From: Chiloscyllium plagiosum
Lineage: Eukaryota
Direction of reading: 5' to 3'
DNA length: 64,000 nt
NCBI RefSeq assembly: GCF_004010195.1
Contig: NC_057751.1
Location: 4,080,961-4,144,960 of the forward strand
The notes under the pieces are model-generated. The model saw only the letters and a program-made list of their open reading frames with translations, did no database searches and was not told the DNA's origin. Shown in pieces: positions 13,066 through 46,147 of the stretch (position 1 is the first letter of the stretch; every line of letters starts with the position of its first letter). The translations under genes and the position numbers were made by a program.

Positions 13066-13269
13066 TCGGTAGAATGTGGAGCTGGAAAGTCACGGCAGGT
13101 CAGACAGCAAGGGGAGGAGCAGGAAAGTCGACGTTTCGAGTCGGGACCCTTCATCAATCTGAATGAAGAATTCCGACCCAAAACATCGACTTCCCTTGCT
13201 GTCTGACCCGCTGTGACTTTCCAGCCCCACATATTATCGACTCTGTCTTTGCAGCATCTGCAGTTCTTA
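13066..13269. mobile_element. Fold-back element from a Penelope-like (PLE) terminus, degenerate hammerhead
   Basis: Inverted arms (ctggaaagtcac...cagacagcaaggg / cccttgctgtctg...gtgactttccag) with a cagcatctgcag end and eroded TGATGA..GAAAC motifs. Confidence 0.65.
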
Positions 13270-13500
13270 TTATCAATAGAGATAAGTAGCAAGGTATAAA
13301 ATAGACCCCAGTGTAACTGAAGGGATTCATAAATGTCCCAAAACCAGCCCTGCCTTTTTTGGACCGGGAACTTGTTGGCCTTACCAATCTGTTTTACGAA
13401 CATGCAAGTCCGATCCTAAAACAACGGTTGATGCTAAACTTTCTTGTGGCGTTGCCTGGCTTGGTACTTAGTTTTATCAAACTGTGTCACTACAATTGTG

Positions 13501-13736
13501 AGGACAAAGCGAGGACTGCAGATGCTGACGATCAGAATCAAAAAGTGTGGTGCTGGAAAAGCACAGCCGGTCAGGCAGCATCAGAGGAGCAGGTGAGTCG
13601 ATGTTTCAGGCAGAAACCCTTCATCAGGAATTAGGCTCATTCCTGATTAAGGAGCTTATCCCCGAAACGTCGATCCTTCTGCTCCTCTGATGCTGCCTGA
13701 CCGGCTGTGCTTTTCCAGCACCACACTTTTTGACTT
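13501..13736. mobile_element. Fold-back PLE-terminus element with TSD
   Basis: Arms of about 93 bp spanning 13538-13733. Flanking repeat tgtcactacaattgtg / tgtcactggaattgtg at 13485-13500 and 13737-13752. Partly eroded hammerhead cores. Confidence 0.8.
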
Positions 13737-14542
13737 TGTCACTGGAATTGTGTCAAGAGACATGGTCATGACATCATAAGATGTGACCTAAGGGTAAAAA
13801 GCTATCAGACGCCATCTTAACTGGGATCACCTGAAACACTTCCATGCTGACGGAAGAATGAGTTTCTGGTTAAAATTACATTGCTATTTGCTGAAGCCTT
13901 GTGTACAAATTGCTGCGTTTCCTTCATCATAACAGTGACACCTCTTCAAAAATACTTAATTGACTATCAAACAACTTGAAACATACAAACATTCTGAAAG
14001 GTGCTAAATAAATGCAAATCTATTTCTGGAATAAAGGATGTAGAGAATCGTTGAAATGGTCACATTGAGCTAGACACAGAATGCTGCTACTTCTGAAAAA
14101 ACATTCCTGGTGGCCACTTCCAGCCTCTGCAAAGCTCCTTATATCTGTAACTTCCCCAACTATTCCACTTCTCCGTATCTTTGAAAGCTTTACAAACCCA
14201 TCCCGATATCTGTAACTTCTTCCAGCCCCTACACCTTTCCCTATCTCTGCCACCATCTCCCGTCCTGCGTTTCTCCACATCTCGGCCCGAATTTTCGTCT
14301 GTTGTATATGAATGATTTACATCATTGGTGGTCGCTTTGCTATTCTCTCACGAAGATTGGCACTCTTACCTCCTTAAAGCTATCCCTTAGAGGAAACATT
14401 TGCCCACGGATTCTAATATCTCCCCTTTGGCTCTTTATCACATTCTGTTTAATAGTATTCCCGTTTAACTACACTAAAGGCACTGTCTATAAGCAAGTTA
14501 TTGTTACACTTCCGAATCATGGAAGGCACTCTTGGATCAGGA

Positions 14543-14716
14543 ATTGCTGGAAAAACTCAGCCGGTCTGGCAAATTCTGTAGAGAGATAGAAACGGTTCAC
14601 GTTTCGCGTCCCCTCGACCCTTCCTTAGAAATGGCCTTCTGAAGAAGTCGCACTCGCAACCTTATCTCTGTTTTCTGTCCACAGATGTTGCCAGACCGGC
14701 TGAGTTTTCCAGCAAT
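14543..14716. mobile_element. Older fold-back PLE-like terminus element (separate subfamily)
   Basis: attgctggaaaaactcagccggtctggcaa ... ttgccagaccggctgagttttccagcaat. Related arms at 14820-14955, 19280-19375, 32810-33005 and 35400-35480. Confidence 0.6.
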
Positions 14717-15769
14717 ATCTCTTTGTTTCAGGTGCAAATCTTGGATAAGGACATGAGCCCAGAATTCCATCGTCTCATGTTCATTGATGTTCACAAGTCA
14801 GCCATCGAATCGGATTGAATAAAAGCAAAATATTGCGGATGCTGGAAATCTGAAGCAAACACAGTGAATGCTGGAGAAACTCAGTAGGTCTGGAAGCATT
14901 TGTGGCGAGAGAAACAGAGTTAACGTTACGCGTCCGGTATGACTTCTTTCAGAACTCAGATGCTGTTTAATCTTTCGTGTTGCCTTTTACGAAATATCTG
15001 TGTGTTTTTGAAGAAAGCACATTTATCTCCCAGTCAATGGAATTGAACGATCAAAGACACAGAGAAGTACATGTTTGGACATTGTCCTTCGTGTTCGGGA
15101 TTTCCAATGCGCTGCTCAGTTTATCACGATGAGTGTTCATGTTGAAACATCCCTTCAATGAGTATCCCATCTCAGTGGGGTTGAGATGGGTCATGTAAGT
15201 TACGCAGGAGGACGGGAAACAAAGTTGATTTTTCCAGCCAGGCATCTGCTGTTGGGGGTGGGGCGTGGCATAAAATTTGGGTCAAAGTTCTGTCAAAGTT
15301 TGACTTTGTGCCCGCAACATAAATCCAGCTTGTTCAACTCGGGCTTTATTGTTCCTCGCGATGTTCGCATCAAACGTATCTGCTTTTCATCAAAAAGGGA
15401 AATATTGTAATGTTTTCAGACGCCCGGGGAAAAGAAGACAAAACAAACCCGGTCTGGAAGCGTTCATTTTTGCTTCTCCCTGCACAGTTACTGCTGAGTT
15501 GCTCCAGTACAATATTTTCACACATTTCAAAATACAAATAGACCCTATCTTTATTTTTTTTCCGCACACATAGATAGAGCAAGTGTTCTCAAAACTGTAA
15601 TCCCGTGCACCAGTTAAATTGCCCTTTTCGGGAAGGAGTGAGCTTTGCTCCTGTTTGTACTCTGGACATGGGTGTTGGGTAAGCTGCTGTTCGCAGGAGG
15701 AGCGGCATTGGGACAAGGTGGGGGTGGGGGTCTTACTCTTCCGGTGCACTCGAATATCAGATCATGGCC

Positions 15770-15885
15770 GTGACGCTCAGCCAATCGACGTGTGGGTAAC
15801 ACCCCAAATCCTTGTGCCAGACCAGTGGGCGGGGGATGCACCAGTCTGCGCCAATCGAGATGGGAAAAGGAGGTGGGCGCAGTTT
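15770..15885 (+). promoter_or_regulatory. Probable RHOBTB2 promoter (CCAAT boxes, GC box, CRE/AP-1-like site)
   Basis: tgacgctca at 15771, CCAATCG at 15781 and 15851, gggcggggg near 15827. These lie in the main CpG-rich stretch of the window (about 15.3-16.75 kb), upstream of a good splice donor. Confidence 0.65.
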
Positions 15886-15899
15886 CTCTGAGACCTCGC

Positions 15900-18084: not shown

Positions 18085-18460
18085 TGCTGCAGGGTGACCT
18101 TACAGAGGTTTATAAAATCATGAGGGGCATGGATCGGATAAATGGACAAAGTCTTTTCCCTGGGGTGGGGGAGTCCAGAACTAGAGGGCATAGGTTTAGG
18201 GTCAGAGGGGAAAGATATGAGAGATCTAAGGGGCAACTTTTTCCCACAGAGGGCACTATGTTATGGAATGAGATGCCAGAGGATGTGGTGGACGCTGGTA
18301 CAATTGCACCATTTAAGAGGCATTTGGATGGGAATAAGAATAGGAAGGGTTTGGAGGGATATGGACCGGGTGCTGGTCAGATTAGGTTGGGATATCTGGT
18401 CAGCGTGGACAAGTTGGACCGGAGGGTCTCTTTCCGTGCAGTACATCTCTATGGCTCTAT
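18085..18460 (+). mobile_element. CR1-type LINE 3' fragment
   Basis: ORF2 C-terminus LQGDLTEVYKIMRGMDR...SRTRGH followed by the CR1 3' UTR tail. Confidence 0.85.
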
Positions 18461-20922
18461 ACCTTATTGCAAAACTGGGTAAGTGTAATCAATGTCGATA
18501 AGGGTCATAATGACTTTGTTTTATTCTTCAGTGAGATTTGGATGTCACTGACCAGCATCTGTTGCCCATCCCTAAGTGTTCTTCAAGTGAATAACCTGCT
18601 TGACCATTTCAATGGGCATTTAAGCATCAGTTAGATGGCTGTGCCTTTGAAGTCATGTGCAGACCAGTCCAGGTATAGATGACAGATTTCCTTTCTCAAA
18701 GGAAATAGATAAACTTTAATTTCCAAATTTGTTAAATTAATTTACATTCAACCAACTGTTATGATGGTGTGAAACCCTCATCTAACAGCATTAGCCTCGG
18801 AACCATCGTCTCCTCCATCCTGACTTAATTCCATGCTTTATTATATCCACAGGGTATTTGTAATTGAATATCTTATTAATGTGGATTTGAACTTTGAAAG
18901 CTATGTCTAAGTGAGTAAATATTTCCATTGTAAAAATTGCAAGACCCAGACAGAAAACAAAACAGTTGACGTGATTTGGTTTCTTTATTACTGTTTGTAG
19001 ATTTTAGACATTAGTCAGAATAGTTTTAGTAAATGACTCAACACATAATTATTCACATGCTAGAGCACAAAACATCCATTGTAAAATTTACCAAATTAGT
19101 AATCCTTGCAGATTAGGTTTTGTACACCAGTTCAAATGCATAGTAACATTTGAAATGACATCATTTGACTTGCATATGAGGCACTGAAATTTCGGCTTAT
19201 GTAACCTAATTAAGCAACTACAGCTTAGATGCAGATCAGCCGTGATCTAATTGAATGATAGAATGAGCTGGGGGGGTATGAAATAAAAACAGCCATGCTG
19301 GAGAAACTCAGCAGGTTTGGCAGCATCAGTGGAGAGAGAAACAGTCAATGTTTCCAATTCAAAGATGCTTTTTCAAGGGGGTGAATGGTCTTTCCTTAGT
19401 CTCCATCCTTATAATGCTGGTGCAGATGTTTTAACCTTGCAATGGACCTTGGCTGAGCCTGGTATCAAACTTCCTGAAAGCATTGACTGTTTTATGAGGG
19501 CTAAGTTCTTTGTGAGCCTGTGTGGTGTGAGTGTGTGTGATTGTCTGTGTGTTTGATACTTGAGTGTGTGGAAGCACCCCCAACCAGAATGAACAGCATG
19601 TTATTCCACTGTATCTACAGACATTTTTATTTTGCCATCTTTTCATTTGTTCCTCAAGTTGACCAACATTGATAGAAATCATTTATTGCTGAGTATTAAG
19701 AGGCAACTGCATCTCATAGGATTTGACTTAAATGCCCGTTTGGGTAGCACGATATCTTCTCTGAAGGAGATCTTATGCATGCATTCTGCAGTGTAGTTTA
19801 CTTCTCTGATTTTATTGAGATGGTTTGTGAAAATTATTGCTTGGCAGGCTTTATTGCCATGGATTGACAGAAAATGTCCAATGTTACTGAAACAGCAACC
19901 TTGAGGTTCAGGAAATGAAATAAGTTGGATGTGAATTGTGTCTTTGTTAACCAAAGCACTTGACAGCTGTGATTTACATTTGAAATGTGGTCACCTTGGA
20001 AATTTGGCAGTCAATTTTGAGTACAGTGAGGTCTCCAACATAAAGCAATGGGATACATCACCAGCTAACTAGATTGCTGACATGAGGGATACAACTGGCC
20101 AGGATGCCAGGAGAAACTCCACTCCCCAAGCTGCTAGGGTCTTGTTAGTTTCCACCACGTACTGCTCAAGATTTGCAACAAGGAAAGAAGACTTACAAAC
20201 TTATTTAAGTTTTAACATGCACAGCATTAATTTTAGCCATTAACTGAACATACTGAGTACCCAGTTGAGGATGTAGTGCAGCAAGCAGATGAGCAAGCTT
20301 TCAGCTTTGATCCACGGTCCTTGAAATTTACAAAACAAATTCTTGCTAATCATGGAGGCAAGATTGAGTAAATTTTACGTTATTTGAAAATTGTGTTTGA
20401 TAGCTTCTGTATATGCGATTGACCACTGTATACTTGTGATGGATTAAGTCAAAAAGAAGACATTTTAGATCTGTTGTGTTTACAGGAATGGGTGCTTTTC
20501 TGGAACAGAGATCCACAATTTTGCTTGCTTCAGCCTTTGTCGTCAAGTTTCTCCTATTCTGGAACAGTCAATGGAGACTGGACAGTGATATTGACCTGAG
20601 GACCAAAGTGTCACGTCAGCTATTACCCCCCATTTTATTTGACTGTGACAATTATCTTAACCCAAATTGTGACTGGCCTGTCAAACTCGACTGTTAATTT
20701 GAGGCCATCCTGCTGACCATATCTGAACTCAGACCGCCCAGTTCCCGTATCACCCCTGTGCTCCTTAAACAGCAAGGGCACACGCGACCAAGGAGCATTT
20801 GATTTGAAAATTCCCTTGTTTCCAAATTGCTTCATGACCCAGCCTCTCCGCAAATTCCTCCAGCCCCACAACTCCTTGAGATCACTGTGTTCATGCAATC
20901 CTGGTCTCTTCAACATCTTTGT

Positions 20923-21244
20923 GGGCGGCATGGTGTCACAGTGGTTAGCACTGCTGCTTCACAGCGCCAGAGATCCTGGTTCAATTCCCGCCTCAGGCGA
21001 CTGACTGTGTGGAGTTTGCACGTTCTCCCCGTATCTGCGTGGGTTTCCTCCGGGTGCTCCGGTTTCCTCCCATAGTCCAAAGATGTGCAGGGTCAGGTGA
21101 ATTGGCCATACTAAATTGCCCGTAGTGTTAGGTAAGGGGTAAATGTAGGGGTATGGGTGGGTTTCGCTTCGGCGGGTCGGTGTGGACTTGTTGGGCCGAA
21201 GGGCCTGTTTCCACACTGTAATGTAATCTAATCTAATCTAATCT
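20923..21244 (+). mobile_element. Full-length tRNA-derived V-SINE (HE1-like)
   Basis: gggcggc head, ggttcaattccc B box, V-domain, gggccgaagggcctgtttcc tail, (taatc)n end. Confidence 0.9.
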
Positions 21245-21986
21245 CCAAGTTTAATCCTGTCAGAGGGAGCAGTCCCTTTAGCTGTTGGTGCCTGAAATTT
21301 TTAAAATTTCTTCCCGTAATCTCTCTCCTTTCAGACCCGGCTTTACATCTTTGAGGCACCTGTTAAAACCAAAAGATTTGATCAAGCTCTTTGTCATCAG
21401 ACGTTGCTCATTGTAAAAGTTAGTTTTATATTGCCACCCTGAAATGTCTTGATTTGTTTTATTGTGTGAAAGTTACTTGACAGTTATGCTTAACTTACCA
21501 TTCCAAAAATGCACAATACCCTTATTCTGAATTGGAATATTGTCAAGGGATTATTTAAAATTAAAAATGGAAAGAAGAACTGAGAGTGCTGGAAATCATA
21601 ATCCAGCAATTCCTGTTTGCATTGTTTTTTGCTCATCTAAGATAGAAGATGGGAACATAGTTCAACACCTGATCCTGAAAAAAAGCCCTGTGACAATGGA
21701 GCACTCGCATGGTACTGGATTAGATTATCATACTTGACTTGTCTATTCCCCTCCTGGATTGAGACATGAACTCATAACCATCTGACTCAGATGGGAGGGT
21801 CTGACGCATTGGACCTCAAAATTGTGAAATTGTACATAATCAATAGCTGTGATACTACTTGAGATGGCAATTAAATCGTGCTGAGCCGAGTAAGCTTGAA
21901 GTCAATCTGCTTGCCACTTCAAAAACCAAACCGTAATTGTTCGGGACTTGGTGTGCGCTGGTTTGAGATGACTGGGTGTGAAAGAG

Positions 21987-22220
21987 GAGAAAGTGAGGAC
22001 TGCAGATGCTGGAGCTCAGAGTCGGAGAGTGTGGTGCTGGAAAAGCGCAGCAGGTCAGGCAGCATCCGAGGAGCAGGAGAATCGACGTTTCGGGCATAAA
22101 CCCATTAATCTGTAATGAGCATAATTCCTGATGAAGGGCTTATGCCCGAAACATCGATTCTCCTGCTCCTCGGATGCTGCCTGACCTGCTGTGCTTTTCC
22201 AGCACCACACTCGACTCTGA
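21987..22220. mobile_element. Fold-back PLE-terminus element with 12-bp TSD and hammerhead core
   Basis: Inverted arms. TSD ggtgtgaaagag at 21975-21986 and 22221-22232. CTGATGA-A-GGGC-TTAT-GCCC-GAAA at 22128-22151. Confidence 0.85.
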
Positions 22221-22513
22221 GGTGTGAAAGAGCTGAAGTCGGACTGACAGCTGGGATTTCTGACTGACACCAAAGAGTTCTTCTTTGAAACCCACAGCTC
22301 TGAAGCAGTACTTGGCTTCTGAGCATCCATCATACAAACATTACTACTTCCCAAAAACACTTTCAGCCTGTTGTGTTTTGGTGGAAACTGGAGAGATATT
22401 TATGAACAAACTGCATTTCAAGTTGTTATCTCTTTTTAACGTCACAGATTTCTCTGAACCAATAAAATTGAATTATCCAGCACAGGTAGGAATCATGCTG
22501 TGAAATTTTAAGG

Positions 22514-22960
22514 AGTTTGGAAAAGATTTACAAGGATGTTGCTTGGGCTGGAGGGTTTGAGCTGTCGCGAGAGGCTGAATAGGTTGTGGCTATTTTCCCT
22601 GGAGCTTCGGAGGCTGAGGTTTATAAAATCATGAGGTGTAGAGCAAATGAACAAAACCCTTTCCCCAGAATTGGGGAGTCCAAAGCTAGAGGTTTAAGGT
22701 GAAAGGGAAAAGATTTGCAAGGGAACCAAGGAGCAACGTTTTTACACCAGAATGGCGAGAAAATGGAATGAGCTGCCAGCGGAGGTGGTGGAGGCTGGTA
22801 CAATTAGAACATTGGAAAGGCATCTGGATGGGTATATAAATCAGAAGGATATGGGCCAACTGCTGGCAAATGGGACTGGATTAATTTCAGATATCTGTTT
22901 GACATGGACCAGTTGGACCGAAGGGTATGTTTCCATGCTGTACATCTCTGACTCTATGAT
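22514..22960 (+). mobile_element. CR1-type LINE 3' fragment
   Basis: RFTRMLLGLEGLS.RERLNRL and WNELPAEVVEAGTI remnants plus the CR1 tail. Confidence 0.8.
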
Positions 22961-24339: not shown

Positions 24340-24734
24340 CATGTCTGTCTTAAAAAGGCATGCCTGCTCCTGGTTGATGTGGTTGTATTTGTGGCACAGA
24401 AAATGGCCAATTGACCTAATAGATCTTTACTGGTGTTTGTGATCCTCACTGGGTCCTCCCACTTAGTTAATCTCATTCCACATCCTGATATTATTGCTGT
24501 TTCACTGCACCCATACATCACAAAACTGTTTCATTCTTAAGTCACAGCATTCTTGAGAATTAGATGGAAAATGCACACAACACTCAGCAGGTCATGCAGC
24601 ACCTCTGTCGAGAGAAACAATGTGAAGAGTTTCAGTTTGGTGATGTCAAGGGTGTAATAGTTCTTAAGCAAATCTAGAGGCAGGCACAGGGGAATACAGA
24701 GCAAAAGGGATGATATGTGGCAGGTTGGAAGGCA

Positions 24735-25598
24735 GTCATGGAGCTGTACAGCATGGAAACAGACTCTTCGGCCCAACTGATTCATACCAATCAGATATCA
24801 TCAATTAATCTTGTACCATTTGCCAGCATTTGGCCCATATCCTGCTAAATGCTTCGTCTTGATATACCCATCCAGATGTCTTTTAAATGTTGTCATTGTA
24901 CCAGCCTCCACCACTTCCTCTGGCAGTTCATTTCATTATGTGCACCACCCTCTGCGTGAAAAAGTTGCCCCTTGCATCTCTTTTAAATCTTTGCCCTCTC
25001 GCCTTAAACCTGTGCACTTTAGTTTTGGACTCCACTGCTCTGGGGAAAATGCATTGGCTATTCACCCTATCCGTGCCCCTCATGATTTTAGAAACCTCTA
25101 TAAGATCACAACTCAGCCTCCAGGTAAATCAGCTTTGGCCTATTCAGCCTCTCCCGATAGCTCAAACCCTCCAATCCTGGCAACATTCTTGTGAATCTTT
25201 TCCGAACCCTTTCAAGTTTCACAACATCTTTCCTACAGCAGGGAGACCAGAATTGAACATAGTATTCCAAAAGTGGCCTTACCAAAGTCTGTACAGCCGC
25301 AACATGACCTCCCAACTCCTATTCTCAATACACTGACCAATAAAGGAAAGCATACCAAATGCCACCTTCATTATCCTGTCTACCTGCAACTCCACTTTTG
25401 AGGAACTATTAACCTGCACTCCAAGGTGTCTTTCTTCAGCAACATTCCCCAGGAGCTTAACATTTACTGTATAAGTCCTGCCATGATTTGCCTTTCCAAA
25501 ATGCAGCACCTCACATTTATCTAAATTAAATTCCATCTGCCACTCCTTGACCCACTGACCCATCTGATGAAGATCCCGTTGTAATCTGAGGTGACCTT
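24735..25598 (-). mobile_element. CR1-type LINE ORF2 3' fragment
   Basis: LQRDLHQMGQWVKEWQMEFNLDKCEVLHFG and LVRPLLEYYVQFWSP...LERVRKRFTRMLPGL. Confidence 0.9.
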
Positions 25599-26202
25599 CC
25601 TGGTAGTCGTAGTTGTGTGTGTGTAGTAACATCAAGTCAGGAAAGGATGGTAATTGGCCAAAAAGAGAACAAAAGGTTATTTAAAGGGTCTGTAGATGAC
25701 TACAGCAGAACCATGACCTGTAATTTGAAAAATGGTAACACAGGTCTGACATTGTTACACTATTTGTCAGGTATTTCATCAAAATTTCATGTTCTGCAAC
25801 TTGAGCTTCCATTGAACCTCTGTTGCAATAATGTTGCAGGGGAAGGTCTGTGTCGGATTGGGAAAAAGATTTGAAATTTAAATATGAATCAGGCTTGGGA
25901 ATGAATCTATCTGTTCAGCACAATAAATGTGAGCAAGGGCATCCTGAAGGGGAGGAATTTGACTTTGCATGGCCCAACCATGCAGCTAGCATTGCTTGAA
26001 CACCAATGATCATCTCTGTTTCATAGTCAGCGAATTTGTAAGTGAATATTGATTGGGAGCTTTACCAGGTGATCCTTTCGATCGTGACTCGACCAATGTG
26101 TAAGACCCTAAAATGGTCTTTGATACATCTCCTCCTGATCTTTGGTCGTTGCTATCCAGCTGCTGTTAATCCCAACTTGAACATTCATGCATGTATAAAA
26201 GT

Positions 26203-29497: not shown

Positions 29498-29792
29498 TGT
29501 TGTTTCATGGAATCCATACAACGTAGAAGCAGGCCATTCATCCCATCAAGTCCATACCAACCCTCTGAAGAGCATCCCTCCAGACTCTTTTTTTTTCAAA
29601 TGTTTTTTCCCCCTCCCTAATCTATCCCTGTAATTCTGCACATCTTTGGACTGTGGGAGGAAACCAGTGCACCCGGAGGAAACCAATAGGGAGAATGTGC
29701 AAACAACGCACAAAAAGTCACCCGAGACTGGAAACAAACCTGGGTCCCTGGCGCTGTAAGACAGCACTGATAACCACTGAGCTCCCCTGCCA
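29498..29792 (-). mobile_element. Diverged HE1-like V-SINE
   Basis: ctgcacatctttggactgtgggaggaaacc...ggagaatgtgcaaac V-domain plus a degraded head. Confidence 0.7.

Positions 29793-31062: not shown

Positions 31063-31365
<303 letters not shown>

Positions 31366-33173: not shown

Positions 33174-33176
<3 letters not shown>

Positions 33177-33216
<40 letters not shown>
33177..33216. repeat. (TC)n microsatellite
   Basis: About 20 perfect TC units. Confidence 0.95.
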
Positions 33217-33219
<3 letters not shown>

Positions 33220-33374
33220 TTCCTGTTTTAGGGGGACACCTTAAATTTTGCATGTTTAACTCAGCTTTTGGTTAACTGATCTAAAATTTCCTTCGTGATT
33301 CAATATTATATTTGGTTTAATAATATTCTGTGAAGCATGCAGGGTATCCTATTACTTTAAAGATGCAATCTAAA

Positions 33375-35315
33375 TTCAAGTTGTGAAGGGCAGGTCTGGT
33401 AGGTGAAAAGGATGCGAGATGATAGAAATTGAGGCTCTGGTCAAGAAAAAGAGAAGGAAGCATATATCAGGTATAGACCGCTGCAATCAAGTCAATCCCT
33501 GAAAGAGTTATAAGGGCAGTAGGTGTATGCTTAAGAGGGAAATCAGGAGAGTAAAAAGTGGATGTGAGATAGATTTGACAAATAGACTTCAGAAGAATCC
33601 AAAGAGATTCTACAAATACAATAAGGACGAAAGAGTAACCAGGGAGACAGTTGGGCTCCTGAAAGATCAACATGGCTGTCCAAATGTGGAACCACAGGAA
33701 ATGGTTGAGATACTTAAAAACCTTTTGCATCAATATTTACTGTAGAGAAGGATATGGAAATGAGGGAACTTGGCGAAATAAATGGTCATGTCTTGAAAAG
33801 AGTTCATATTTTAGATGAGGAGGTGCTAGAGGCCTTAGAACACAATAAGGTAGATAATTCCCTGGGACCTGATCAGGTGCTTCCCAGAAATTTTTCAAGA
33901 AGAGATTTCTGGGCCCCTTACTGAGATATTTGGATCATCAACAGCCATGGGGGAGGTGCTGAGAGACTGAAGGTTTGCTAATGCGTTGTCATTATTTAAG
34001 AAACACTTTGAGGAAAAGCCAGGGAGCTCAAAACAGGTAAGCCTTCAGTCAGTGTTGGGTAACTTGTTAGAGCCGATTCTCAGTGACAGGACACAACGTG
34101 CATTTGGAAAAGCAAGGACCAATCAGGGATAGTAAGCGTGGCTTTGGAAATTATGGGAAATCATATTTCAGAAATTTGATTGAGTTTTTTGAAGAGGTGA
34201 CAAAGAAGATTGAAGGCAGAGCTGTAGACCTTATCTCCATGGACTTCAGCAAAGCATTCGAGAAACTTCTGCATGGTAGACTGGTTAGTCAGGTGAGATC
34301 ACATGAGATCCAGAGAGCGCTAGCCAATTCAGTACAAAATTGGCGAGAAGGTAGAAGAGGGTGATGGTACAGGATTGTTTTTTGGACTGGAGGCCTGTGA
34401 CAAGTTGACAAGTAGTAGATTTATTTCTCCTTCATTTATGTAAGTATCTTGGATATGAATATGGAAGGTACGTTAGTAAGTTTGCATATGACACCCAAAT
34501 TGGAGGTGCAATGGACAGTGTAGAACTTTATCTCAGAGTACATTGGTACGTTGATCAGAAGGGCTAATGGGCCAAGAAATGGTTGAATTTAAATGAATAC
34601 AAGATGCTGCATTTTGATGAGGCAAACCAGGGCAGAACTTAGACAGTTAATGGTTGGGGAGTGTTGACGAATAAAGAGACCTTGGGGTGCAGGTGCATAG
34701 TTCCTTGGAAATGGAGTCACAGGTAGATAGGGTTCATTGGTCATAACATGAAGTCGAGGAGTTGGGATGTCATCATGTGGCTGGAGAGGACGGTAGTTAG
34801 GCCACTTTTGGAATATTGCATTCAGTTCTGATCTTACTGTTGTAGGAAAGATGTTGCTAAACTTGAAAGGGTCCAGAAAACATTTGAAAGGATGTTGCTG
34901 GGACTGGAGCGTTTGAGCTATAGAAAGAGGCTGAATAGGCTGGGGACTTTTTCCCTGGAGCATTGGAGACTGAGGGCTGATCTCTTAGAGGTTTATAAAA
35001 TAATGACGGGAATGAATAGGGTGAATAGCCAAGGTCTTTTTTTTTCCAGGCTAGGAGAGTCCAAAACTGGAGGGTTTAAGGTGAGAGGGGCAAGATTTAA
35101 AAGGGATCGGAGGGGCAGAGGATGTTGGGTGTATGGATCAAGCTACCAGAGAAGATGATGGAGGTGGGTACAATGGAACATTTAAAAGGCATCTGGATGA
35201 GTATATGAATAAGAAGGGATTAGGGGGATATGGGCCAAATGCTGGCAAACAGGACTTAGTCAGATTGGGATGTCTAGTCGGCATGGACTGTTTCCATCAT
35301 GTATAACTATATGCC
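33375..35315 (+). mobile_element. CR1-type LINE, about 1.9 kb 5'-truncated and degraded ORF2
   Basis: NPKRFYKY, NLIEFFEEVTKKI..AVDLISMDFSKAF, LRADLLEVYKIM and the CR1 3' tail. Many stops and frameshifts. Confidence 0.9.
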
Positions 35316-38148
35316 TCGATAAGTTATTGTTGCACATGGTTATTTGTGCTTACATTTATTTGAGTGGAAAACAATAACACAGCACAACAAACACTTGAAC
35401 TTCAAAACAAAGGCAGAAAATGCCACAAGTACTCAGGAGATCAGGCAGTATCTGTGGAGAGAGAAAGGGTTTACCCTTCAGTTTGATGAGTTTGAGTCCG
35501 ATTTAATAAAGTATGTTTAGCAATGTGTGACCTCGATTCTCAATCCCTTGATTAGAGTTCTGGTATAGTCATTGCAAAGCTCCAGTACCCTCAATTTGAT
35601 TTTGCGAAAGGCAGAGTAATTTACTTCGACTCATTATCATTCACATGGGGAGATTGGTGTTGAGCTTTACTTCTGAGTTCAAGAAATCTGAACAGCATTG
35701 AAAACCATGGAGCATAAAATGTTGTATCACTGGGAAAAGAAAGAGAATTGAAGTTGGCATTAATTACAGCTGAAGAGGGTAATGTCTTTCAAAATACATC
35801 AGTCAGTAGTGTTCTCACCTCTGTCAGAATGTTGTGGGTTCAACATTGAACCCATCGTGGGTTCAACTGCTCCAGAAACCTGGGCAAATCATTTAGCTAA
35901 CTTCCTAATCAGTGATGCTATTACTCATGTCTGAGCAGGTTGGACTTTAACCTGGGCCTGTTGCCCAGAGGTAGGGACACTGCCACAACAGACATCTTGA
36001 GCACGTAATCTCTGCTGATTTACAGATGCATAGGCAGTACAACAGTGTCAAAGGTGCCATCTTTCATGTGGATTATGAAACAAAAGCCCTGTCTGCCCTC
36101 CCGGATGGACATGTTCAGCCCTGCAATCTTCATTCACTGAACAGCATGGAAAGTTTTGCCAATGTAATGTCTTGGCCAATATTTATTTCTCAGTACGGCT
36201 TTTACTGGTTTTGTCCATAATCTGCGTAACTATCATACAAGATATCATGTCATCTGTCAGATGACGTAATACTTGGAATGTATTCATAGGTCCAGAATGA
36301 CATGGTCAGTAAGAGCTCTCTAGCAACAAAGGAAACAGAACATCAGTCAATGTGGCAGGTTATCTGTTTATCATTACATTGTTTTTGATGGGAATTTGCT
36401 GTTCTCAGGTGGAGTACTGCTTTTCCTGTATGACAACAGTGAGTACACTTCAGTACATTGCACCACAATGAATTGTTTGCTCTATGTCCATCATTTCTCT
36501 TAAGTGGAAAGATGATGACAAATACACTTAAATAAAACATGTTTAACTGTGAAACCGTCCAGGATGTCCCAAGATCATCAAAGTTACTTTTTAATGCGGA
36601 TAGTTTTATCAGGAGCATCCAGTTTAACCTATTAAAAACATGTAAACATTGGTTGATAGCTAACAAGTTTTTGAAGATGTAAGTTTTAATTTGTAAATAA
36701 ATATAGGTATGTTGAGTTGCAAACCCAAGAGGACATTACTGGTGTTAGTTACATAATCCCAATTTTGTTTCTGTAAAGGCATGGTGTTTTACCTGTTCAA
36801 TAATGTGACAGCACTGGCAAATCAGTGTTAATTGATCATCCCCTATTCTACTGAGATCATTAAAAGTCAAAACGTGTTTTGTTTCCTGGCATCAGTCCTT
36901 GACATACCTTTTTAACAGTTTGAAGCTATATTCCCCTGCTGTACAATTTCAGTATAACTTACATTCATGTTCCAGTTGCATCCTTCTCCATATTTGTAAC
37001 TGTTCCACACGATTATGAGATTACCAATAACACTGTTAGATCACTGACATTTTTCCAATCAGACTTTGAGTCCACTGGTAGATTCAGGTACAACTTTGTT
37101 ACAGCTTCAGATTTTTTTTGCAGTAAGGCATGCAAAGACTTCAGATTGTGTACAGTTAAAACTTAAGAGTGCCCACATCCCTCTTGATATTATTGGTCTG
37201 TGGCATTGAGATGTCCCTCTGTAATTCGCTGTCTCATACAACATATGAAAGAGATGGACAGGCTGGTGGTCCATTCATGGTCATGATATTTTCAGTAACT
37301 TCAATGATAAGGCGGGGGGCGGAAAGGGGGCTGAACCTGGTTTGAATCTTTTCTTTTGCTGAATATTTTGCATATATGCGGATCTATAACTACCTCAGAA
37401 TCTGTATCTATGATTATCTGAAGAGTCTGTACTGAAACCGACTCTTAATATTGCAACAGATTGATTAAATAATTCAAGAGGAACAACTATTTATGTAAGC
37501 TGCATGCTCTATCTAAGCTGGTGACCTTGATTGAACAGTTTTGCTCTGTTCGACTTGCTGAGACCACATTTTCCGAAGGCTGTCTGCCTACTGTCAGCCA
37601 TGTTCTGCTGCATTCTGTCAGCCTTTGTCTAATCAGTTATGGGCAACCCCATTGGCTATTTTGTGCCACTTGGTCATGGGCAGCACTAACAAGCACCAAT
37701 CCGAAATTACACCTCAGCCTTCCACCATCAGACGCCAACCTTTTAGTTCTTCTTTACACTGTTGCCAGTGCTTGAATGTCTCCCTTGTATCTTCACACCA
37801 AAAGGTGAAGGAGAATTCAAGATGCTGTCCTGTTATTATGCACCTCAGAGACAGTTTGTTCTCTCCCACACTCTGGTATTTTGGCAGTGCAGTTAAGTAT
37901 TTTGGCAACATAGTTCGATATGAGTGTAACTGAACATTGGGTGGGCACGCTATCTGCCAAATCAACTAAAGCACGTGACTCTAATACATTTGGGTGTCAA
38001 CTCCGACAACATTCTTCATGGAAGAAATGTCTGGTTTATGTTCTGTTCCTTGGCACTGGTCATTATGGGGCAGGGACTGAGGGTGTCACTTTTCAGGCAA
38101 GGGATTTGAAATGCATAAAATCACCTCCTCAGTTTGTTTTTTGTTTGA

Positions 38149-38298
<150 letters not shown>

Positions 38299-39032
38299 TG
38301 AGTGGGAAACTCCAGATTTCCAGTTGAAGCATTTAGTCATGGAGGAAAGAAATACTGAAGCAACCAATGGCATGAAAACTCCATTCTCTTCAGAATATTC
38401 TGCTTTCCATAAGCTACATTCCACCACAATTCAAATGCGAAAAAAGACTTTTTTCACCTTTGTAAATGCATGCCTTACAATGTCCTGCAGGGTTTATTTT
38501 CAGAGTGAACCATCATGAAATGAAAATTAGCATTTGATGCCAAACTGTAATCCTTTTGATAAACTCAGTATTTCATGAACAAATCTGAAATGAGAGAAAT
38601 GTTGTGAATCTGGGGAATTGCAGCCCTCAGCCAATGAAGTATTCTCTCGGAATGATGCAGCATCTCTGCTGCGTCATTCAACTGCACTGTGAACCTTTCA
38701 CTCTGGAGACATGCTCTGCATCATTTTGAAAACCTGGCCAATGAAGGAGCCTGAGATCAAACTTCCACTGGTGCCAATCGAGGAGAGTTTCATCTGCAAC
38801 TATTTTATTCCATGTATTTGATTTTCAAGTCTTCATTGATAAGTGCAGCTAATTTGCAATGACTTAATCCGCATGCAATCGGTGTTCACCTCAATAATAG
38901 ACATAGTCAGATATTGCAGCGCTTCGTTCCTATAAATGTCAGTGAAGAACAGTTATTTTTAAGCAAATTATGGCTGCATTTAAGGGGAGGCTGGATAAAT
39001 GTATCTGGGGGAGAAGGCCAGAATAATGTTGT

Positions 39033-39358
39033 TGGTAAAATCAATGACTGCAGATGCTGGAAACCAGATTTTGGATTAGTGGTGCTGGAAAAGCACAGCA
39101 GTTCAGGCAGGATTGAAGAAGTTTTCCTCCTCTCTCTACAAGAATCTCAGGGAGTCCCTCTCCCACTGCAACTCCCAGGTCATTTCCTCTGCCCTGAACC
39201 TCTATTCTATGCTACTTTCTCCCCACCTTCCTCTCATTTATCTCTCCACCCTTCAGGCACTCTGCCTGTATTCCTGATGAAGGGCTTTTGCCCGAAACGT
39301 CGATTTTCCTGCTCCTCGGATGCTGCCTGAACTGCTGTGCTTTTCCAGCACCACTGAT
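39033..39358. mobile_element. Fold-back PLE-terminus element with 15-bp TSD and intact hammerhead core
   Basis: TSD ccagaataatgttgt at 39018-39032 and 39359-39373. A partial inverted arm, a pyrimidine-rich spacer, then the + arm with the core. Confidence 0.85.
39270..39305 (+). ncRNA. Minimal type I hammerhead ribozyme motif (PLE type)
   Basis: attc-CTGATGA-A-GGGC-TTTT-GCCC-GAA-ACGT-C-gatt. Palindromic ACGU stem III, GUC cleavage triplet, weak stem I. Confidence 0.6.
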
Positions 39359-39571
39359 CCAGAATAATGTTGTGACAGGCTAAGATTAAATAGGGCAAGT
39401 CCATTGGAAACATAAAACACCAGCATGCATCAGACAGGCTGAATGGTCTGTTGCTGTGTGATGCATGCTATGAAATAAAATGCAATCGCTAAGGTTTCTG
39501 ATACATCCATTGGCGACACAAGCATTATGTCACTGTGTGGTCTCTAGCTCTTTTGGAATTGTAATGGGTAA

Positions 39572-39793
<222 letters not shown>

Positions 39794-41225: not shown

Positions 41226-41812
41226 CAGGAAATTACGTGGATCTTTTTTTCTTTATGCTCCCTTTACATGGAAAACCTTTCAGTTGTTAGATTCTCCAAC
41301 CACCACCCCAGTGAAGAACTGGCTGAGCAAATTGGAATGACTCGTGGCTTAGAGACTTAGAATTTGTCTTTGGGATGTGGTATACTCTAATTTCTTGAAC
41401 TATAGGACTGCATAATTCACTTTTTTGCTCAATGACTGCAGCTGTGTTGTGTTTCTTTTTAACTTTACACTTTGTTCCTTTCAAAGTGCATCTGAGATGT
41501 TTCAGTTACTGGATCTCAGATGTATTTTGCTTGTGCTGCAGATCTATCCCACTCTGTCCGAGTATCATGAACGACAATACAGATTAACCGAGGCACCTGC
41601 ATGGTTACAATATTGATTTGTACTTCATATTTAGAAAATCTGGATTTAAGTAATATTTTATACACAGTCATAATTCTCAAACATGGCGATTTGATGCTTC
41701 CAACAAGTTTTACATTTTCGGCCTTTCAAGCAGTGAGAGAAAATGAGAAGACGTAAGTGGTAGTTTTGAGTTAATTTTGTTGAGCTCACATTATGGCTTT
41801 ATTCATTCACAG

Positions 41813-42804
41813 GCCAATACGACACAATGAGATTTTGCCTCCAGAAAAAGGTCGTGAGGTCGCCAAAGAATTGGGAATCCCCTATTATGAAACCAGCGTG
41901 GTGGCCCAATTTGGCATTAAAGATGTCTTCGATAATGCCATCAGAGCTGCCTTAATTTCCAGGCGGCACCTCCAGTTCTGGAAGTCACATCTGAGGAATG
42001 TTCAAAAGCCTTTACTCCAGGCCCCATTTCTGCCTCCCAAGCCACCTCCCCCCATCATCACTGTCCCAGATCCCCCCAAGACCAATGAAGAGCATCCCGC
42101 CCACTTATTGGCCAATCCTCTTTGTGCAGATGTCATCCTGGTGCTTCAAGACAAGGTTAAAATCTACGCCCACAAGATTTATCTGTCTACCTCCTCCTCT
42201 AAATTTTATGACTTGTTTCTAATGGACCTCAATGAAGAGCCAGAGTCTGGCAGTGAAAGAGCAGTGAGCCACAATGACAGGCAGGGCAGGGAACACTTAA
42301 TGAGAGCTGCTAGTTTTGATGTCAGTGAAAGTACAGATGAAGTTCCAACCACCCAACCATTATCCAATCTTCGAGCCTCTACCAGTGATGGTATCTTGAA
42401 ACTGAATGCCTGTGATCACAGTGCAAGAGCAAAAGCATGGCTCAAAAGAAGAAAGATATTATCGACGTGGAGCAAAGCTTTTATCAGCATCCAGGAAGAG
42501 ATGGCTGAAGATCCCATCACGCTGAACAATCGGCTGATGACTGTTGTCAGGATGGACTACTCTGTTCACCCTGATGCGTTCAGTGCTGTCATGCATTACT
42601 TGTACACTGGCCAGCTGGATGAGAATGAGAAGGAGCTGATGCAGATAGCCCACATTGCAGAGCTGCTGGAGGTTTTTGACCTGCGTATGATGGTCGCCAA
42701 TATTTTAAACAATGAGGCCTTCATGAACCAAGAGATTACCAAAGCATTCCACGTGAGGAGGGCAAACCGTGTCAAAGAATGCCTTGCCAAGGGGACCTTC
42801 TCAG
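41813..42804 (+). CDS. RHOBTB2: RhoBTB2 coding exon 4 (end of GTPase, proline-rich region, split BTB1)
   Basis: [29 protein letters not shown]...PPKPPPP...CADVILVL...[17 protein letters not shown]...[11 protein letters not shown]. cag| acceptor, |gtaaac donor, 992 nt, phase-consistent. Confidence 0.98.
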
Positions 42805-43117
42805 GTAAACCTGTTTGGTGTGCTTTCAATGTGTGTTTCAAAATACAGCAAAAAAACCCTGTAAATCTGAAAATGTAAACTCCAGTCTGCCCAGACCAGT
42901 CATCTCGTAGCTTCCTTGGTTTTGTGTTGTTTCTGTCCCCAGTTCAACAGTGTTTAGCCAGTCAATATATTTGAAATGGCAATTTAATCAGAGGACCTGA
43001 GGCAGTGCATGGATGAACATTGATCAGAAACAATGATTTATAATCATAACCCTAACTTCAGTTCCATATCTTAGCAAAATAACACTGTTTCTTTTGTTTT
43101 ATACCTTCGGGACAAAT

Positions 43118-43435
43118 ATTAGACTAGATTACATTACAGTGTGGAAACAGGCCCTTCGGCCCAACAAGTCCACACAGACCCGCCGAAGCGCAACCCACCC
43201 ATGCCCCTACATTTACCCCTTACCTAACACTACGGGCAATTTAGCATGGCCAATTCACCTAACCTGCACATCTTTGGACTGTGGGAGGAAACCGGAGCAC
43301 CCGGAAGAAACCCACGCAGATACGGGGAGAACGTGCAAACTCCACACAGTCAGTCGCCTGAGGCGGGAATTGAACCTGGGGCTCAGGCGCTGTGAGGCAG
43401 CAGTGCTAACCACCGTGCCACCCACATTGCCGCCC
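43118..43435 (-). mobile_element. Full-length HE1-like V-SINE
   Basis: Highly similar reverse complement of 20923-21244. Confidence 0.9.
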
Positions 43436-43534
43436 ACATTCAGGCTGTTAAGTCCTCTGCCTACAAGGTTTCTGAGGCAGAGGCTTGAGAGTTTTTGACT
43501 TAGAAAACTTGCTTTCCATTTCTTCAGCATTATT

Positions 43535-43830
43535 CCTCACGGCGCCAGGGACCACTGTCTGTTTGGAGTTTGCACATTCTCCTTAAGTCAGTGTGGGTTT
43601 CCTCTGTATGCTCTGGTTTCCTCCCAAAGTCCAAAGATGTGCACCTTAGTTGGATTGGCCATGCTAAATTGTCCATTGTGCAGAGATGTGCAGGCTATAT
43701 GGGTTAGCCATGGGAAATGGAGGGTAATAGGAAAGGGGTGGGGGTAGGTGTAAGTGGGATGCTGTTCAGAGAATCAGTGTAAACTTGATAGACTGAATGG
43801 CCTGCTTCCACACTGTAAGGATTCTGTGAT
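43535..43830 (+). mobile_element. Diverged V-SINE
   Basis: ggagtttgcacattctcc...gtccaaagatgtgca V-domain and a degraded tail. Confidence 0.7.
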
Positions 43831-43938
43831 TGATGAGCTGACAGATGCTCACAGCATTGAGTGTGTTGAAGATATGCATTGTTGAAACTTTATTGCTGGA
43901 ACAGCACAGCAGGTCAGGCAGCATCCAGGGAACAGGAC

Positions 43939-43974
43939 ATTCGACGTTTCGGGCACAGGCCCTTCTTCAGGAAT
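43939..43974 (-). ncRNA. Minimal hammerhead ribozyme motif
   Basis: Minus strand reads ATTC-CTGAAGA-A-GGGC-CTGT-GCCC-GAA-ACGT-C-GAAT, with a perfect 4-bp stem I and stem II. Confidence 0.7.
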
Positions 43975-44173
43975 CTTCTTCAGGCCATTCAGTATTCTGT
44001 ATGTTACAATTAGATTCCCCCTCATCCTTCTGAACTGAGTATAGATGCAAAGTCTCCAAAGTTCTTCATATTCCAGCTTTTCATTCTTGGGACCATTCTC
44101 ATGAACCTTCTCTGAACATGCTCCAAGATTAGTACATCCTTCCTGAGATATGGGGCGCAAAACCGCATACAAT

Positions 44174-44209
44174 ACTCCTGAAGAAGGGCCTGTGCCCGAA
44201 ACGTCGAAT
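44174..44209 (+). ncRNA. Minimal hammerhead ribozyme motif
   Basis: actc-CTGAAGA-A-GGGC-CTGT-GCCC-GAA-ACGT-C-gaat. The 5' strand of stem I is altered at the capture junction. Confidence 0.6.
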
Positions 44210-44429
44210 CTCCTGTTCCCTGGATGCTGCCTGACCTGCTGTGCTGTTCCAGCAATAAAGTTTCAACTTTGATCTCCAGCATCTGCAGACCTCACTTTCT
44301 CCTCGAAGATATGCATTGCTCCAGTGTTCTATTTTGATTATGTTTTTATGGAATGATGCCAGTTTAATGGGAAGGTGTTTCTCTGTACAGAGGTGTGTGT
44401 ACTTGGCTGATGCTGCACTGAACATAAAG

Positions 44430-45012
44430 CAGGGATGTACCTCTAAGGTTCTGGAAGGCTCTGGTCAGACCACATTTGGAGTATTGTATGCGGTTTTGCG
44501 CCCCATATCTCAGGAAGGATGTACTAATCTTGGAGCATGTTCAGAGAAGGTTCATGAGAATGGTCCCAAGAATGAAAAGCTGGAATATGAAGAACTTTGG
44601 AGACTTTGCATCTATACTCAGTTCAGAAGGATGAGGGGGAATCTAATTGTAACATACAGAATACTGAATGGCCTAGACAGAGTAGATTTTGGGAAGATGT
44701 TTCCATTGGGAGGAAAGACAAGGACCTGAGGGCACAGACTGAGAGGAAAGGGAAGACTTTCGGAACAGCGATAAGGAGAAACCTCTTCAGCCAGAGAGTG
44801 GGGAATCTATGGTATTCACTGCCACAGAAGGCTGTGGAGGTCGGGTCATTGAGTATATTTAAGACTGAGATAGATAGGTTCTTGAGTATCAAGGGGATCA
44901 AGTGTTATGGGGAAAAAGCGGGAGAATGGGGTTGAGAAACTTATCAGCCATGATTGAATGGTGGAGCAGAGTCAATGGGCTGAATGGCCTCAATTCTGCT
45001 CCTGTGTCTTAT
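44430..45012 (+). mobile_element. CR1-type LINE 3' fragment (donor of the captured segment)
   Basis: LVRPHLEYCMRFCAPYLRKDV, RRMRGNLIVTYRILNGLDRV, FSQRVGNLWYSLPQKAVE, then the tail. Confidence 0.85.
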
Positions 45013-45221
45013 GCTCTGACAAATCTGAGAATGCTGATCTCGTGAATCTGGATGCTCACTTTGGACGCGGTTGGGGGCTTTGGTGGGGCAGTCATTGATC
45101 AAAACAATCCGACAATTGGGGGCCTGAAAGAGGCCTGGTTCCACTGCTTATAGATGGAGGAGTGTGTGTTGTACCTCACACTGCAAAGCAATTTCTTTGT
45201 GGCCTGTAACATTTTAATCAC

Positions 45222-45316
45222 ATTCCTGAAGAAGGGTTTTTGCCTGGAATGTCAACTGTCCTGCTCCTTGGATGCCGCCTTACCTACTGTTCTTTTCCAG
45301 CACCACACTTTTTGAC
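45222..45316 (+). mobile_element. Single degenerate PLE-terminus arm
   Basis: attcctgaagaagggtttttgcc...ttttccagcaccacactttttgac. Confidence 0.65.
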
Positions 45317-45895
45317 CGTAACATTTTAATGTTCATAATGGGCTCATCATGACGAACTGCAGCTGCCCAACATAGCGACTGCCTCTCAAGCAGGATGCCT
45401 AGGTCGCTGTGTCCGTGAAAAATTGTTTCTTCCCAATAATATAAGCTGAGTGCAGAACGCAACATAGCAGAACTGTGCAGGTTCAAAGCCCAGAGTACAT
45501 CATGATGTTGAATACACTGATTGAGCTAAGATTGATGACTGTTTGGTTTCAGTGGTGTAAATCTGGCCACTGTTTATCTCAGCAGGATTTTTTTTTGCAA
45601 TGAAGGCTGTTCAGCTGCTTTGATTGTCACCCTGCAAAACATCAGCCTCGCCAACTCCTTATTGCATTGTCAGATAGGGTTAGGGGTAATAAAATTAATG
45701 CAAAGTTGCCATGTCAATCTTGTGTCTTCCTTTTAACTTCTTGTTGATGATGAGCCTCGATGCCAGGATAAAACTAAAATTGCCCTTCACAATCTTGAGG
45801 AAAGCACAGCAGGTCAGGCATCATCACAATCTTGAGCCTGTTCCCTTTAATCACCTTTTGAAAGAAGCTGACAATGTTATCCTGACTTCACTTAC

Positions 45896-46147
45896 TATAG
45901 TTACAAATCACACAGCACCAGGTTATAGTCCAACAGGTTTAATTGGAAGCACACTAGCTTTCGGAGCGACGCTCCTTCGTCAGGTGATTGTGGAGGGCTC
46001 GATTGTAACACAGAATTTATCGCACAATTCTGTGTTACGATCGAGCCCTCCACAATCACCTGATGAAGGAGCGTCGCTCCGAAAGCTAGTGTGCTTCCAA
46101 TTAAACCTGTTGGACTATAACCTGGTGTTGTGTGATTTTTAACTATA
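45896..46147. mobile_element. Near-perfect 252-bp hairpin element, second PLE-terminus family
   Basis: Arms 45896-46017 and 46026-46147 (122 bp each, few mismatches) with the 8-nt loop tatcgcac. Each arm carries a hammerhead core. Confidence 0.9.
46057..46091 (+). ncRNA. Minimal hammerhead ribozyme motif (mirror copy on the - strand at 45952-45986)
   Basis: CAC-CTGATGA-A-GGAGC-GTC-GCTCC-GAA-AGCT-A-GTG. Stem I CAC/GTG, 5-bp stem II, palindromic AGCU stem III, CUA triplet. Confidence 0.7.

Follow-up and report, generated by a model that had tools for sequence, protein, structure and literature searches.

Hammerhead-bearing fold-back insertions in the shark Chiloscyllium plagiosum are probably extremely 5'-truncated ends of Penelope-like elements

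The 64,000-nucleotide stretch of Chiloscyllium plagiosum DNA analysed here (the window; NC_057751.1, positions 4,080,961 to 4,144,960) contains 15 loci composed of short repeated arms: eight fold-backs, in which two arms are arranged head-to-head, and seven single arms. These insertions are probably dead-on-arrival, extremely 5'-truncated ends of at least three families of Penelope-like elements (PLEs), generated by two-strand priming on uncleaved RNA. They display traits of EN+ PLEs, namely a minimal type I hammerhead, a tail at one end and 5'-truncated head-to-head copies with target-site duplications (TSDs). Most likely, the shark fold-backs follow a pattern already described for PLEs and do not represent a novel type of mobile element. 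The original prediction assigned them to Penelope termini, an identity which is supported, at the level of sequence features, by the fit to the motif consensus, the head-to-head layout, the one-sided tail of 30-40 nt and the TSDs. It also proposed that they are ORF-less ribozyme mini-elements mobilised in trans. This part is not supported, since the centres differ among copies and sizes are continuous down to a 24-nt insertion with a TSD.

The seven inverted repeats initially predicted (starting at 13066, 13501, 14543, 21987, 39033, 43882 and 45896) were all located, and an eighth, J (32796-33006), a family-2 fold-back with a left-arm tail, had been overlooked. The 33-kb span from 13066 to 46147 includes eight fold-backs and 14 loci in total, a density somewhat higher than the one per 5 kb first estimated. 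Among the fold-backs, A (13060-13270) is old and carries its tail on the right arm; B (13501-13736) and C (21987-22220, core at 22128 on the plus strand) carry it on the left arm; and G (14543-14736) is an older family-2 fold-back without a full tail. E (43882-44304) is young, with arms 98.9% identical and the tail on the right arm, and K (45896-46147) belongs to a third family and forms a near-perfect palindrome (arms 122 nt, 97%; spacer 8 nt). D (39033-39358) is a composite of an inverted tailed arm, an ORF piece, an upstream repeat and a direct arm. The expected single arms are also present: H (14820-14955), with a tail and a decayed core, and the decayed I (19280-19354), both of family 2; the decayed arm fragments N (24582-24626) and O (35405-35474); M (45800-45823), a fragment of only 24 nt; and, beyond the span originally considered, L (9288-9355), a decayed arm of the K family. 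All of these are on the minus strand. The seventh, F (45219-45317), is on the plus strand, lacks the tail and begins 7 nt ahead of the core. Element sizes form a continuum from 24 to about 420 nt, and both arms of any one element always bear the same subfamily marks.

The hammerhead core predicted in the better-kept arms is borne out. A strict minimal-hammerhead descriptor (CUGANGA, stem II, GAAA, a palindromic ANNU and H) gave five matches, whereas 100 dinucleotide shuffles averaged 0.05 and never exceeded 2. The motif agrees with the published consensus for minimal PLE hammerheads, sharing CUGANGAH, a stem II closed by G-C, GAAAN, a palindromic stem III, NUH and a short stem I (PMC4209133), and stems I-III vary among families with pairing retained. 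Intact motifs are found in D (39274..39301, plus strand; minimal type I, with an ACGU palindrome and a predicted cut after GUC), in both arms of E (43943-43970, minus, and 44178-44205, plus) and in both arms of K (45955-45983, minus, and 46060-46088, plus; AGCU palindrome). A check against the Rfam hammerhead models, suggested with the original prediction, was negative: no hammerhead family matched the window at E<=10. The best Rfam matches were miRNA families, far under their gathering scores and reflecting hairpin shape only. The paired hammerheads of a fold-back sit on opposite strands, so that a dimer ribozyme is impossible within one transcript. Dual minimal hammerheads on opposite strands, 100-700 bp apart, have been described in Schistosoma (PMC4209133), and one supplement file of that study contained no shark sequence. 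For transcripts of the C, E and K fold-backs, stem II is predicted to be lost (P ~0), as is burial of the ribozymes by the fold-back shape. The predicted RNA stability of whole arms is ordinary in three of four arms (z -0.36 to -1.07), with z -2.35 for C.

The 3' ends of the arms point outward, toward the TSDs, and fall into two classes about 35 nt apart, at approximately +81 to +101 and +125 to +131 relative to the core. The predicted asymmetry, with one arm running to the terminus and the other short, was recovered: the long end is present on exactly one arm in six of the eight fold-backs and on both arms in none, G and K being without a full tail. Since the tail cannot be scored in family K, this amounts to six of seven scorable pairs, and one-sidedness alone is not significant (~0.06 under an independent 50:50 choice). 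Inner ends do lie close to the ribozyme core, as had been noticed: 12 of 23 arms begin between -14 and +1 of C3. Most arms retain a complete core, with inner ends situated some 30-40 nt 5' of the cleavage site. Ribozyme cleavage was rejected as the maker of the inner boundary because well-preserved arms retain the full core and the rows listed show no accumulation of loose ends at the predicted cut (39302). Four decayed family-2 arms could be aligned only from +20 to +28, for which decay may account.

Four copies with TSDs of 12-16 bp had been reported, a number now exceeded, as seven insertions (B, C, D, E, F, G and M) carry them. Twelve loci (A-L) were compared with 150 random intervals, whose maxima were 7, 11 and 14 nt at zero, one and two mismatches, respectively, and six of the twelve lie above all 150. 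The TSDs are perfect for C (21975-21986 / 22221-22232, 12 bp), D (39018-39032 / 39359-39373, 15 bp), E (43868-43881 / 44305-44318, 14 bp) and F (45206-45218 / 45318-45330, 13 bp), and have two mismatches for B (13485-13500 / 13737-13752, 16 bp) and G (14528-14542 / 14737-14751, 15 bp). M is flanked by perfect 13-bp direct repeats (45787-45799 / 45824-45836), established by direct reading of the sequence outside the null comparison. By the same 150-interval null, no TSD above chance was found for A, H, I, J, K or L; a 6-bp direct repeat at K was rejected, being equalled by 34 of the 150 intervals. AT preference of the TSDs is weak (63%, compared with 58% in the window).

The centres of the fold-backs differ among copies, six of the eight being mutually unlike; the exception is the pair B and C, whose centres are similar (71 and 67 matches over 86 columns in the two orientations) and share centre letters including one core-breaking change. 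For the spacers of A, C, G, J and K, an origin in local flanking DNA was rejected, the matches obtained being only 7-9 nt long and at chance level. The arms of E are instead joined through a 197-nt minus-strand segment (43982..44178) which is an inverted, 100% identical copy of flanking DNA at 44478..44674 (plus), 160-356 nt downstream of E and its presumed template, although this flank copy could be an assembly error. Microhomology of 3-4 nt is present at each E junction, and the centre also shows a 10-nt duplication of arm sequence. The arms of D are unequal and chimeric, with 5' parts that do not overlap. Its inverted arm (39033-39113) bears the tail and lacks a hammerhead; it is followed on the plus strand by about 30 codons of high-copy ORF sequence (39113..39203) and by a high-copy pyrimidine-rich segment (39206..39269), which runs unbroken into the hammerhead at other loci and is presumably upstream pseudo-LTR (pLTR) sequence. 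The ORF sequence in D speaks against an ORF-less family.

This architecture is close to the insertion unit of EN+ PLEs, which consists of a pLTR, an adjacent inverted 5'-truncated copy and a tail of 30-40 bp (PMC8557442, PMC3846280). The head-to-head copy, the one-end tail, the TSD, palindromes at the inverted junction and foreign DNA caught between solo pLTRs are common to both; the shark copies differ in that nearly all are cut to the last 90-140 nt and are very dense, and in TSDs of 12-16 bp, as against 8-10 bp in rotifer examples. A further parallel is the Poseidon element PAc of Anolis carolinensis, the one PLE tested in vitro, whose enzyme cuts and extends both strands, with uncleaved RNA as template and a predicted dimer, and initiates at two internal sites, the distance between them being the tail (PMC11167929). 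In PAc, as in the shark, a hammerhead lies about 120 nt upstream of the insertion end, there are two end classes and the uncleaved ribozyme is retained; however, the PAc ORF begins in stem II, whereas the candidate shark ORF seemingly starts outside the arm (PMC11167929). For the PAc enzyme, the RNA has to reach +172 of the ORF, which is at least 54 nt beyond the main start site at +111-118 (PMC11167929).

By analogy with PAc, which is a different element, both nicked target strands would prime reverse transcription on uncleaved PLE RNA. Each cDNA would be some 90-140 nt long and would usually halt just 5' of the core, probably at an RNA 5' end, as in a strong-stop-like copy of a longer transcript's start, or else through stalling of the enzyme. 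Microhomology-mediated repair would end-join the two short cDNAs, on occasion adding templated filler, as in E, or following a template jump, as in D. Such insertions would be without the downstream RNA required for recognition and, on this proposal, unable to move again for that reason. The similarity between the centres of B and C is less easily explained by independent origins.

A different route to truncated PLE ends, in which a cDNA folds back on a 3' palindrome or hairpin and copies itself before an endonuclease trims one tail, is unlikely but is the strongest of the competing explanations. Hairpin self-priming followed by endonuclease resolution has been proposed for PLEs (PMC3846280, PMC8557442), and it would agree with the identical subfamily marks of paired arms and with the tight centres of A (about 13158), B, C, G and K, which lie on short palindromes or hairpins. 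It is difficult to reconcile, however, with the flank-DNA separator of E or the non-overlapping 5' parts of D, neither of which a single hairpin can yield; two separately made cDNAs fit both better. Moreover, the arm of C that reaches further 5' is the tail-less one, and the anole enzyme directly extends both strands (PMC11167929).

We consider it rather improbable that the insertions are, as originally suggested, non-autonomous ribozyme mini-elements copied in trans by PLE enzymes from short or palindromic masters. Non-autonomous PLE derivatives are known (PMC8557442), short copies far exceed longer ones in contig depth, inner ends are clustered, B and C have centre letters and a core-breaking change in common but bear their tails on opposite sides, and a few head-to-tail joints occur in contigs elsewhere (eight from sequencing run X1 and nine from run X13), the 15 window loci themselves including no tandem. 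Against this stand the six mutually unlike centres, the continuous sizes, which include TSD-flanked single arms (F and M), and hammerheads lying on opposite strands and predicted to be buried. Furthermore, judging from the anole enzyme, mobilisation in trans would need template beyond the point where such copies end, at the start site (PMC11167929). Slightly less probable still is a palindromic RNA derived from a PLE, its centre fixed and its tail start site used at either end, that is copied in trans and has B and C as its offspring; if it existed, it would constitute a non-autonomous retroelement of hairpin shape, separate from tandem retrozymes. MITE-like DNA transposons with hammerhead-resembling terminal inverted repeats, or chance hairpins, would provide inverted ends, TSDs and the lack of an ORF, but are largely refuted and most improbable given arms unequal by a fixed tail, TSDs of variable length, elements of 24 to about 420 nt, single arms with TSDs of their own, and a motif enriched 5 to 0.05 whose stems differ by family with pairing kept.

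Non-LTR retrozymes (PMC7229834; bioRxiv 10.64898/2026.07.22.740005) are likewise ORF-less and pLTR-related with a type I hammerhead, and are reported in one chondrichthyan, the sole one sampled; they are arranged as head-to-tail tandems with ribozymes on one strand, unlike the head-to-head shark copies. As to expression as circular or linear monomer RNA, none of the 8.3 million reads of raw RNA run X22 aligned, a result that carries no weight either way. No description of the shark family appeared in the literature searched, which does not prove its absence from Repbase or Dfam.

The later steps of PLE insertion, including the origin of the inverted copy and of the one-sided tail, are stated to be unvalidated (PMC11167929, PMC8557442). 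A genome rich in minimal products is of value as test material. Where inner ends fall, which side carries the tail and what fills the junctions could discriminate between two-strand priming and self-priming by a hairpin, and could indicate if the RNA 5' end sits just upstream of the ribozyme. Two observations merit following, the position of inner ends just 5' of the core and not at the cleavage site, and the perfect 197-nt flank copy in E. There is also a risk that hairpins of this kind are wrongly annotated as MITEs or microRNA precursors.

The ORF piece of D offers a candidate N-terminus of the parent element's ORF. It resembles residues 4-34 of a predicted protein of Chiloscyllium punctatum (90%) and, over 35 aa, the beginning of one from Hemiscyllium ocellatum (69%), and also lies upstream of an arm in contigs of other loci, in two organisms. 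The two proteins matched are frameshift-like and without Pfam domains. Full-length relatives of this N-terminus numbered 0 of 131 among the longer candidates of a protein search, and among those of near length 2 of 84 matched, the query itself included; a further search gave one representative, and two Atlas searches gave no informative match. A link to PLE reverse transcriptase (RT) is hinted at by a shifted-frame DKG motif, using motifs picked after viewing the sequence: P0002 was positive (6/200 and 15/200 shuffles) and P0003 negative. The searches made found no RT or GIY-YIG domain joined to an arm, and Pfam, applied to 34 of the window's 93 ORFs of at least 90 aa, found no PLE domain; a weak RVT_1 match (25282-25680) was rejected as the element's RT, since it belongs to a different repeat. 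Pattern and protein scans of metagenome contigs matched nothing. At 39270-72 the loose 5' ends are heterogeneous, with an agreement of 0.30-0.36 as against 0.41-0.55 at the 3' end. The pile-up at 39270 is confounded, as the D subfamily departs from the commoner subfamily at the same place. Contig depth, which is not copy number, is about 40-fold or more higher for the arm than for the ORF piece, and in one run about 97,000 contigs, again not a copy number, fell on a single 301-bp stretch.

The seven inverted repeats of the original prediction were all recovered by self-comparison and a repeat finder, together with an eighth fold-back at 32796-33006 (J), and a sensitive search of the window added seven single arms. 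The resulting 15 loci comprise 23 arms, each a copy or piece of a hammerhead-bearing terminal repeat. The 33 kb span holds fourteen loci, against none of these arms in the final 18 kb of the window (46148-64000). An assembly gap, a run of 500 N, occupies 52707-53206. Three sequence groups can be distinguished: A-F (including D) with M, G-J with N and O, and K with L. Fold-back A (13060-13270) is mixed, having features common to the A-F and G-J groups. Fold-back K is apparently young and is a candidate for presence/absence polymorphism.

All fold-backs share the same architecture: the ribozyme-sense 3' ends are directed outward and the 5' ends meet at the centre. Counted from core position C3, the 3' ends form two classes, at about +81 to +101 or +125 to +131. 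The asymmetry between arms proposed earlier holds, since the long 3' end is present on exactly one arm in A, B (13501-13736), C (21987-22220), D (39033-39358), E (43882-44304) and J, on neither arm in G (14543-14736) and K, and never on both. The inner boundary likewise falls near the ribozyme core, as had been proposed: 12 of the 23 arms start between -14 and +1 of C3. Although the reference arms extend only to -14, the inner end is physically bounded by a tight centre in A, B, C, G and J, by the target-site duplication (TSD) in the single arm F (45219-45317) and by a copy of flanking sequence in E. The right arm of D and both K arms extend beyond this interval on the upstream side, and the remaining eight arms either are decayed or have a downstream start. 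Cleavage is predicted at +28 from C3, which indicates that the well-preserved copies are derived from uncleaved RNA. K (45896-46147) is a near-perfect palindrome of 252 bp with an 8-nt spacer.

The predicted TSDs of 12-16 bp were confirmed at six of the 12 loci tested, where they exceed all 150 nulls (B 16, C 12, D 15, E 14, F 13 and G 15 bp); against the same nulls the remaining six loci gave no TSD. A perfect 13-bp TSD was recognised by eye around M, a 24-nt piece. M (45800-45823) is among the smallest possible products of the element and stops some 15-20 nt before the position at which short ends normally fall.

A strict descriptor of the minimal type I hammerhead substantiates the proposed ribozyme cores, with five matching arms (39274+, 44178+, 43970-, 46060+ and 45983-) against a mean of 0.05 over 100 shuffles; an Rfam search of the window found no hammerhead. 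Stem III differs between groups (ACGU versus AGCU), and stems I and II vary across groups with pairing kept. In predicted folds of whole transcripts, stem II is lost in C, E and K and kept only in D. Seven variable positions are listed for 39270-39301: five represent CpG transitions, and the other two, at N7 and in loop II, lie where the ribozyme imposes no constraint. This pattern weakly supports core conservation in the source elements, because the tabulated positions are biased by clipping and by differences that were not counted.

The insertions are real, dense and well formed but belong to an already known kind, and they are very probably ends of Penelope-like elements (PLEs). An inverted truncated copy with a one-sided tail, as seen in the window, is described as typical of PLE insertions in passages of two reports (PMC8557442, PMC8969392), and opposite-strand pairs of minimal hammerheads, with a consensus, appear in a section of another (PMC4209133). 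A literature search found no description of this shark family; repeat databases were outside its scope, and the supplements of the retrozyme paper might list its monomer.

The relevant sections on an anole PLE (PMC11167929) report that it cuts and extends both strands, that it is a predicted dimer, that synthesis begins at two internal sites separated by the length of the tail, and that its template is uncleaved RNA, required to +172 of the ORF. By analogy, reverse transcription of element RNA would be primed from both nicks in the target, usually one per start site; the cDNAs would end close to the ribozyme's 5' boundary, and host repair would join them. We consider it fairly probable that the insertions are PLE ends and also arose by such two-strand priming. 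The cDNA stop most likely marks the 5' end of the RNA, because internal initiation near the transcript start must yield very short cDNA; the excess of tiny copies would then be explained without a separate non-autonomous family. Alternatively, the stop near the ribozyme 5' edge may reflect stalling. A fold-back master locus behind B and C could draw on their alignment across the centre, which is slightly better when the tails are placed on opposite sides (71 of 86 columns) than in the other orientation (67), two copies being too few to settle the matter. Hairpin self-priming with endonuclease resolution, as outlined in part of PMC3846280, fits only in part, being compatible with the tight centres but incompatible with D and E.

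The centre of E is a 197-nt inverted copy, 100% identical in the assembly, of flanking sequence 160-356 nt downstream, and its junctions show microhomologies of 3-4 nt; in addition, arm sequence is duplicated over 10 nt. When microhomology-mediated end joining proceeds by snap-back synthesis on a resected end, it produces an inverted flank copy with microhomology, as seen in E. This signature implies that two separate cDNA ends would have had to be joined. The centre of D is bipartite, with peptide-coding sequence (39113-39203) followed by upstream repeat sequence (39206-39269). The peptide shares 90% identity with a predicted protein of Chiloscyllium punctatum (residues 4-34) and 69% with the beginning of a protein from Hemiscyllium ocellatum; both proteins become low-complexity downstream, like frameshifted repeat ORFs. 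One shifted frame of predicted protein P0002 is compatible with L-x-K-G-L-x-F-x-P and with K-x-[AS]-D-K-G, motifs picked after inspection of the sequence; among 200 shuffles, 6 and 15, respectively, did as well. Predicted protein P0003 matched neither in the shifted-frame test. DKG is among the motifs that PMC8557442 gives for PLEs. The compatibility of P0002 is suggestive of a reverse transcriptase (RT) and is no proof.

Four sequencing runs were compared with 39100-39400 at 85% likeness. Matching contigs numbered 97,236 of 22.7 million in X1, 94,062 of 20.4 million in X13 (a second organism) and 7,584 of 1.8 million in X11. Summed depth in X1 was lowest in the unique flank (5-10), reached 0.11-0.36 million in the ORF piece, fell to 8-23 thousand at the join and rose again to 0.2-1.3 million upstream of the core and to 8.5-16 million in the arm; neither contig counts nor contig depth equal copy number. 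In X22, a raw RNA run, 0 of 8.3 million reads matched, a result that does not count as a test. Loose 5' ends concentrate at 39270-72 (1386, 451 and 325 contigs in X1), a position confounded by subfamily divergence. Their agreement is low, at 0.31-0.33, which argues against one common upstream sequence; ends on the 3' side, with tail letters visible, reach 0.42-0.48. Among the joints listed, opposite-strand joins at 39270 occur in 19 contigs of X1, 29 of X13 and 2 of X11, head-to-tail joins of the short unit (39349-39355 to 39270) in 8 of X1 and 9 of X13, and same-strand links from ORF piece to arm number 6 and 7 in these two runs. The head-to-tail joins are possibly tandem dimers able to form a dimer ribozyme, in a retrozyme-like manner; retrozymes are described as tandem units in part of a preprint (bioRxiv 10.64898/2026.07.22.740005). 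Asymmetric fold-back joints recur in other loci, at 39270 and 39307-39318, with one arm beginning at stem I and the other, at +33 to +44, shortly beyond the cleavage site and stem I on their 3' side. Possible causes are stalling at the folded ribozyme, RNA that had been cleaved, or subfamily-dependent clipping.

On the plus strand, an open frame of 364 codons (41784-42878) contains a BTB domain and matches Ras weakly; it probably represents a large exon of a gene of the RhoBTB type, in which case D and E would sit in introns of that gene. An interspersed repeat of about 310 bp, SINE-like by size alone, is present in both orientations, its copies 75-93% alike (3095-3413, 20920-21237, 29636-29793, 43118-43423, 43554-43680, 60333-60442, 61179-61467 and 62252-62493). 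Old LINE-like fragments, 67-74% alike, are found at 18094-18460, 22486-22957, 24734-25590, 34532-35256 and 57121-57803, with a weak RVT_1 match among them at 25282-25680.
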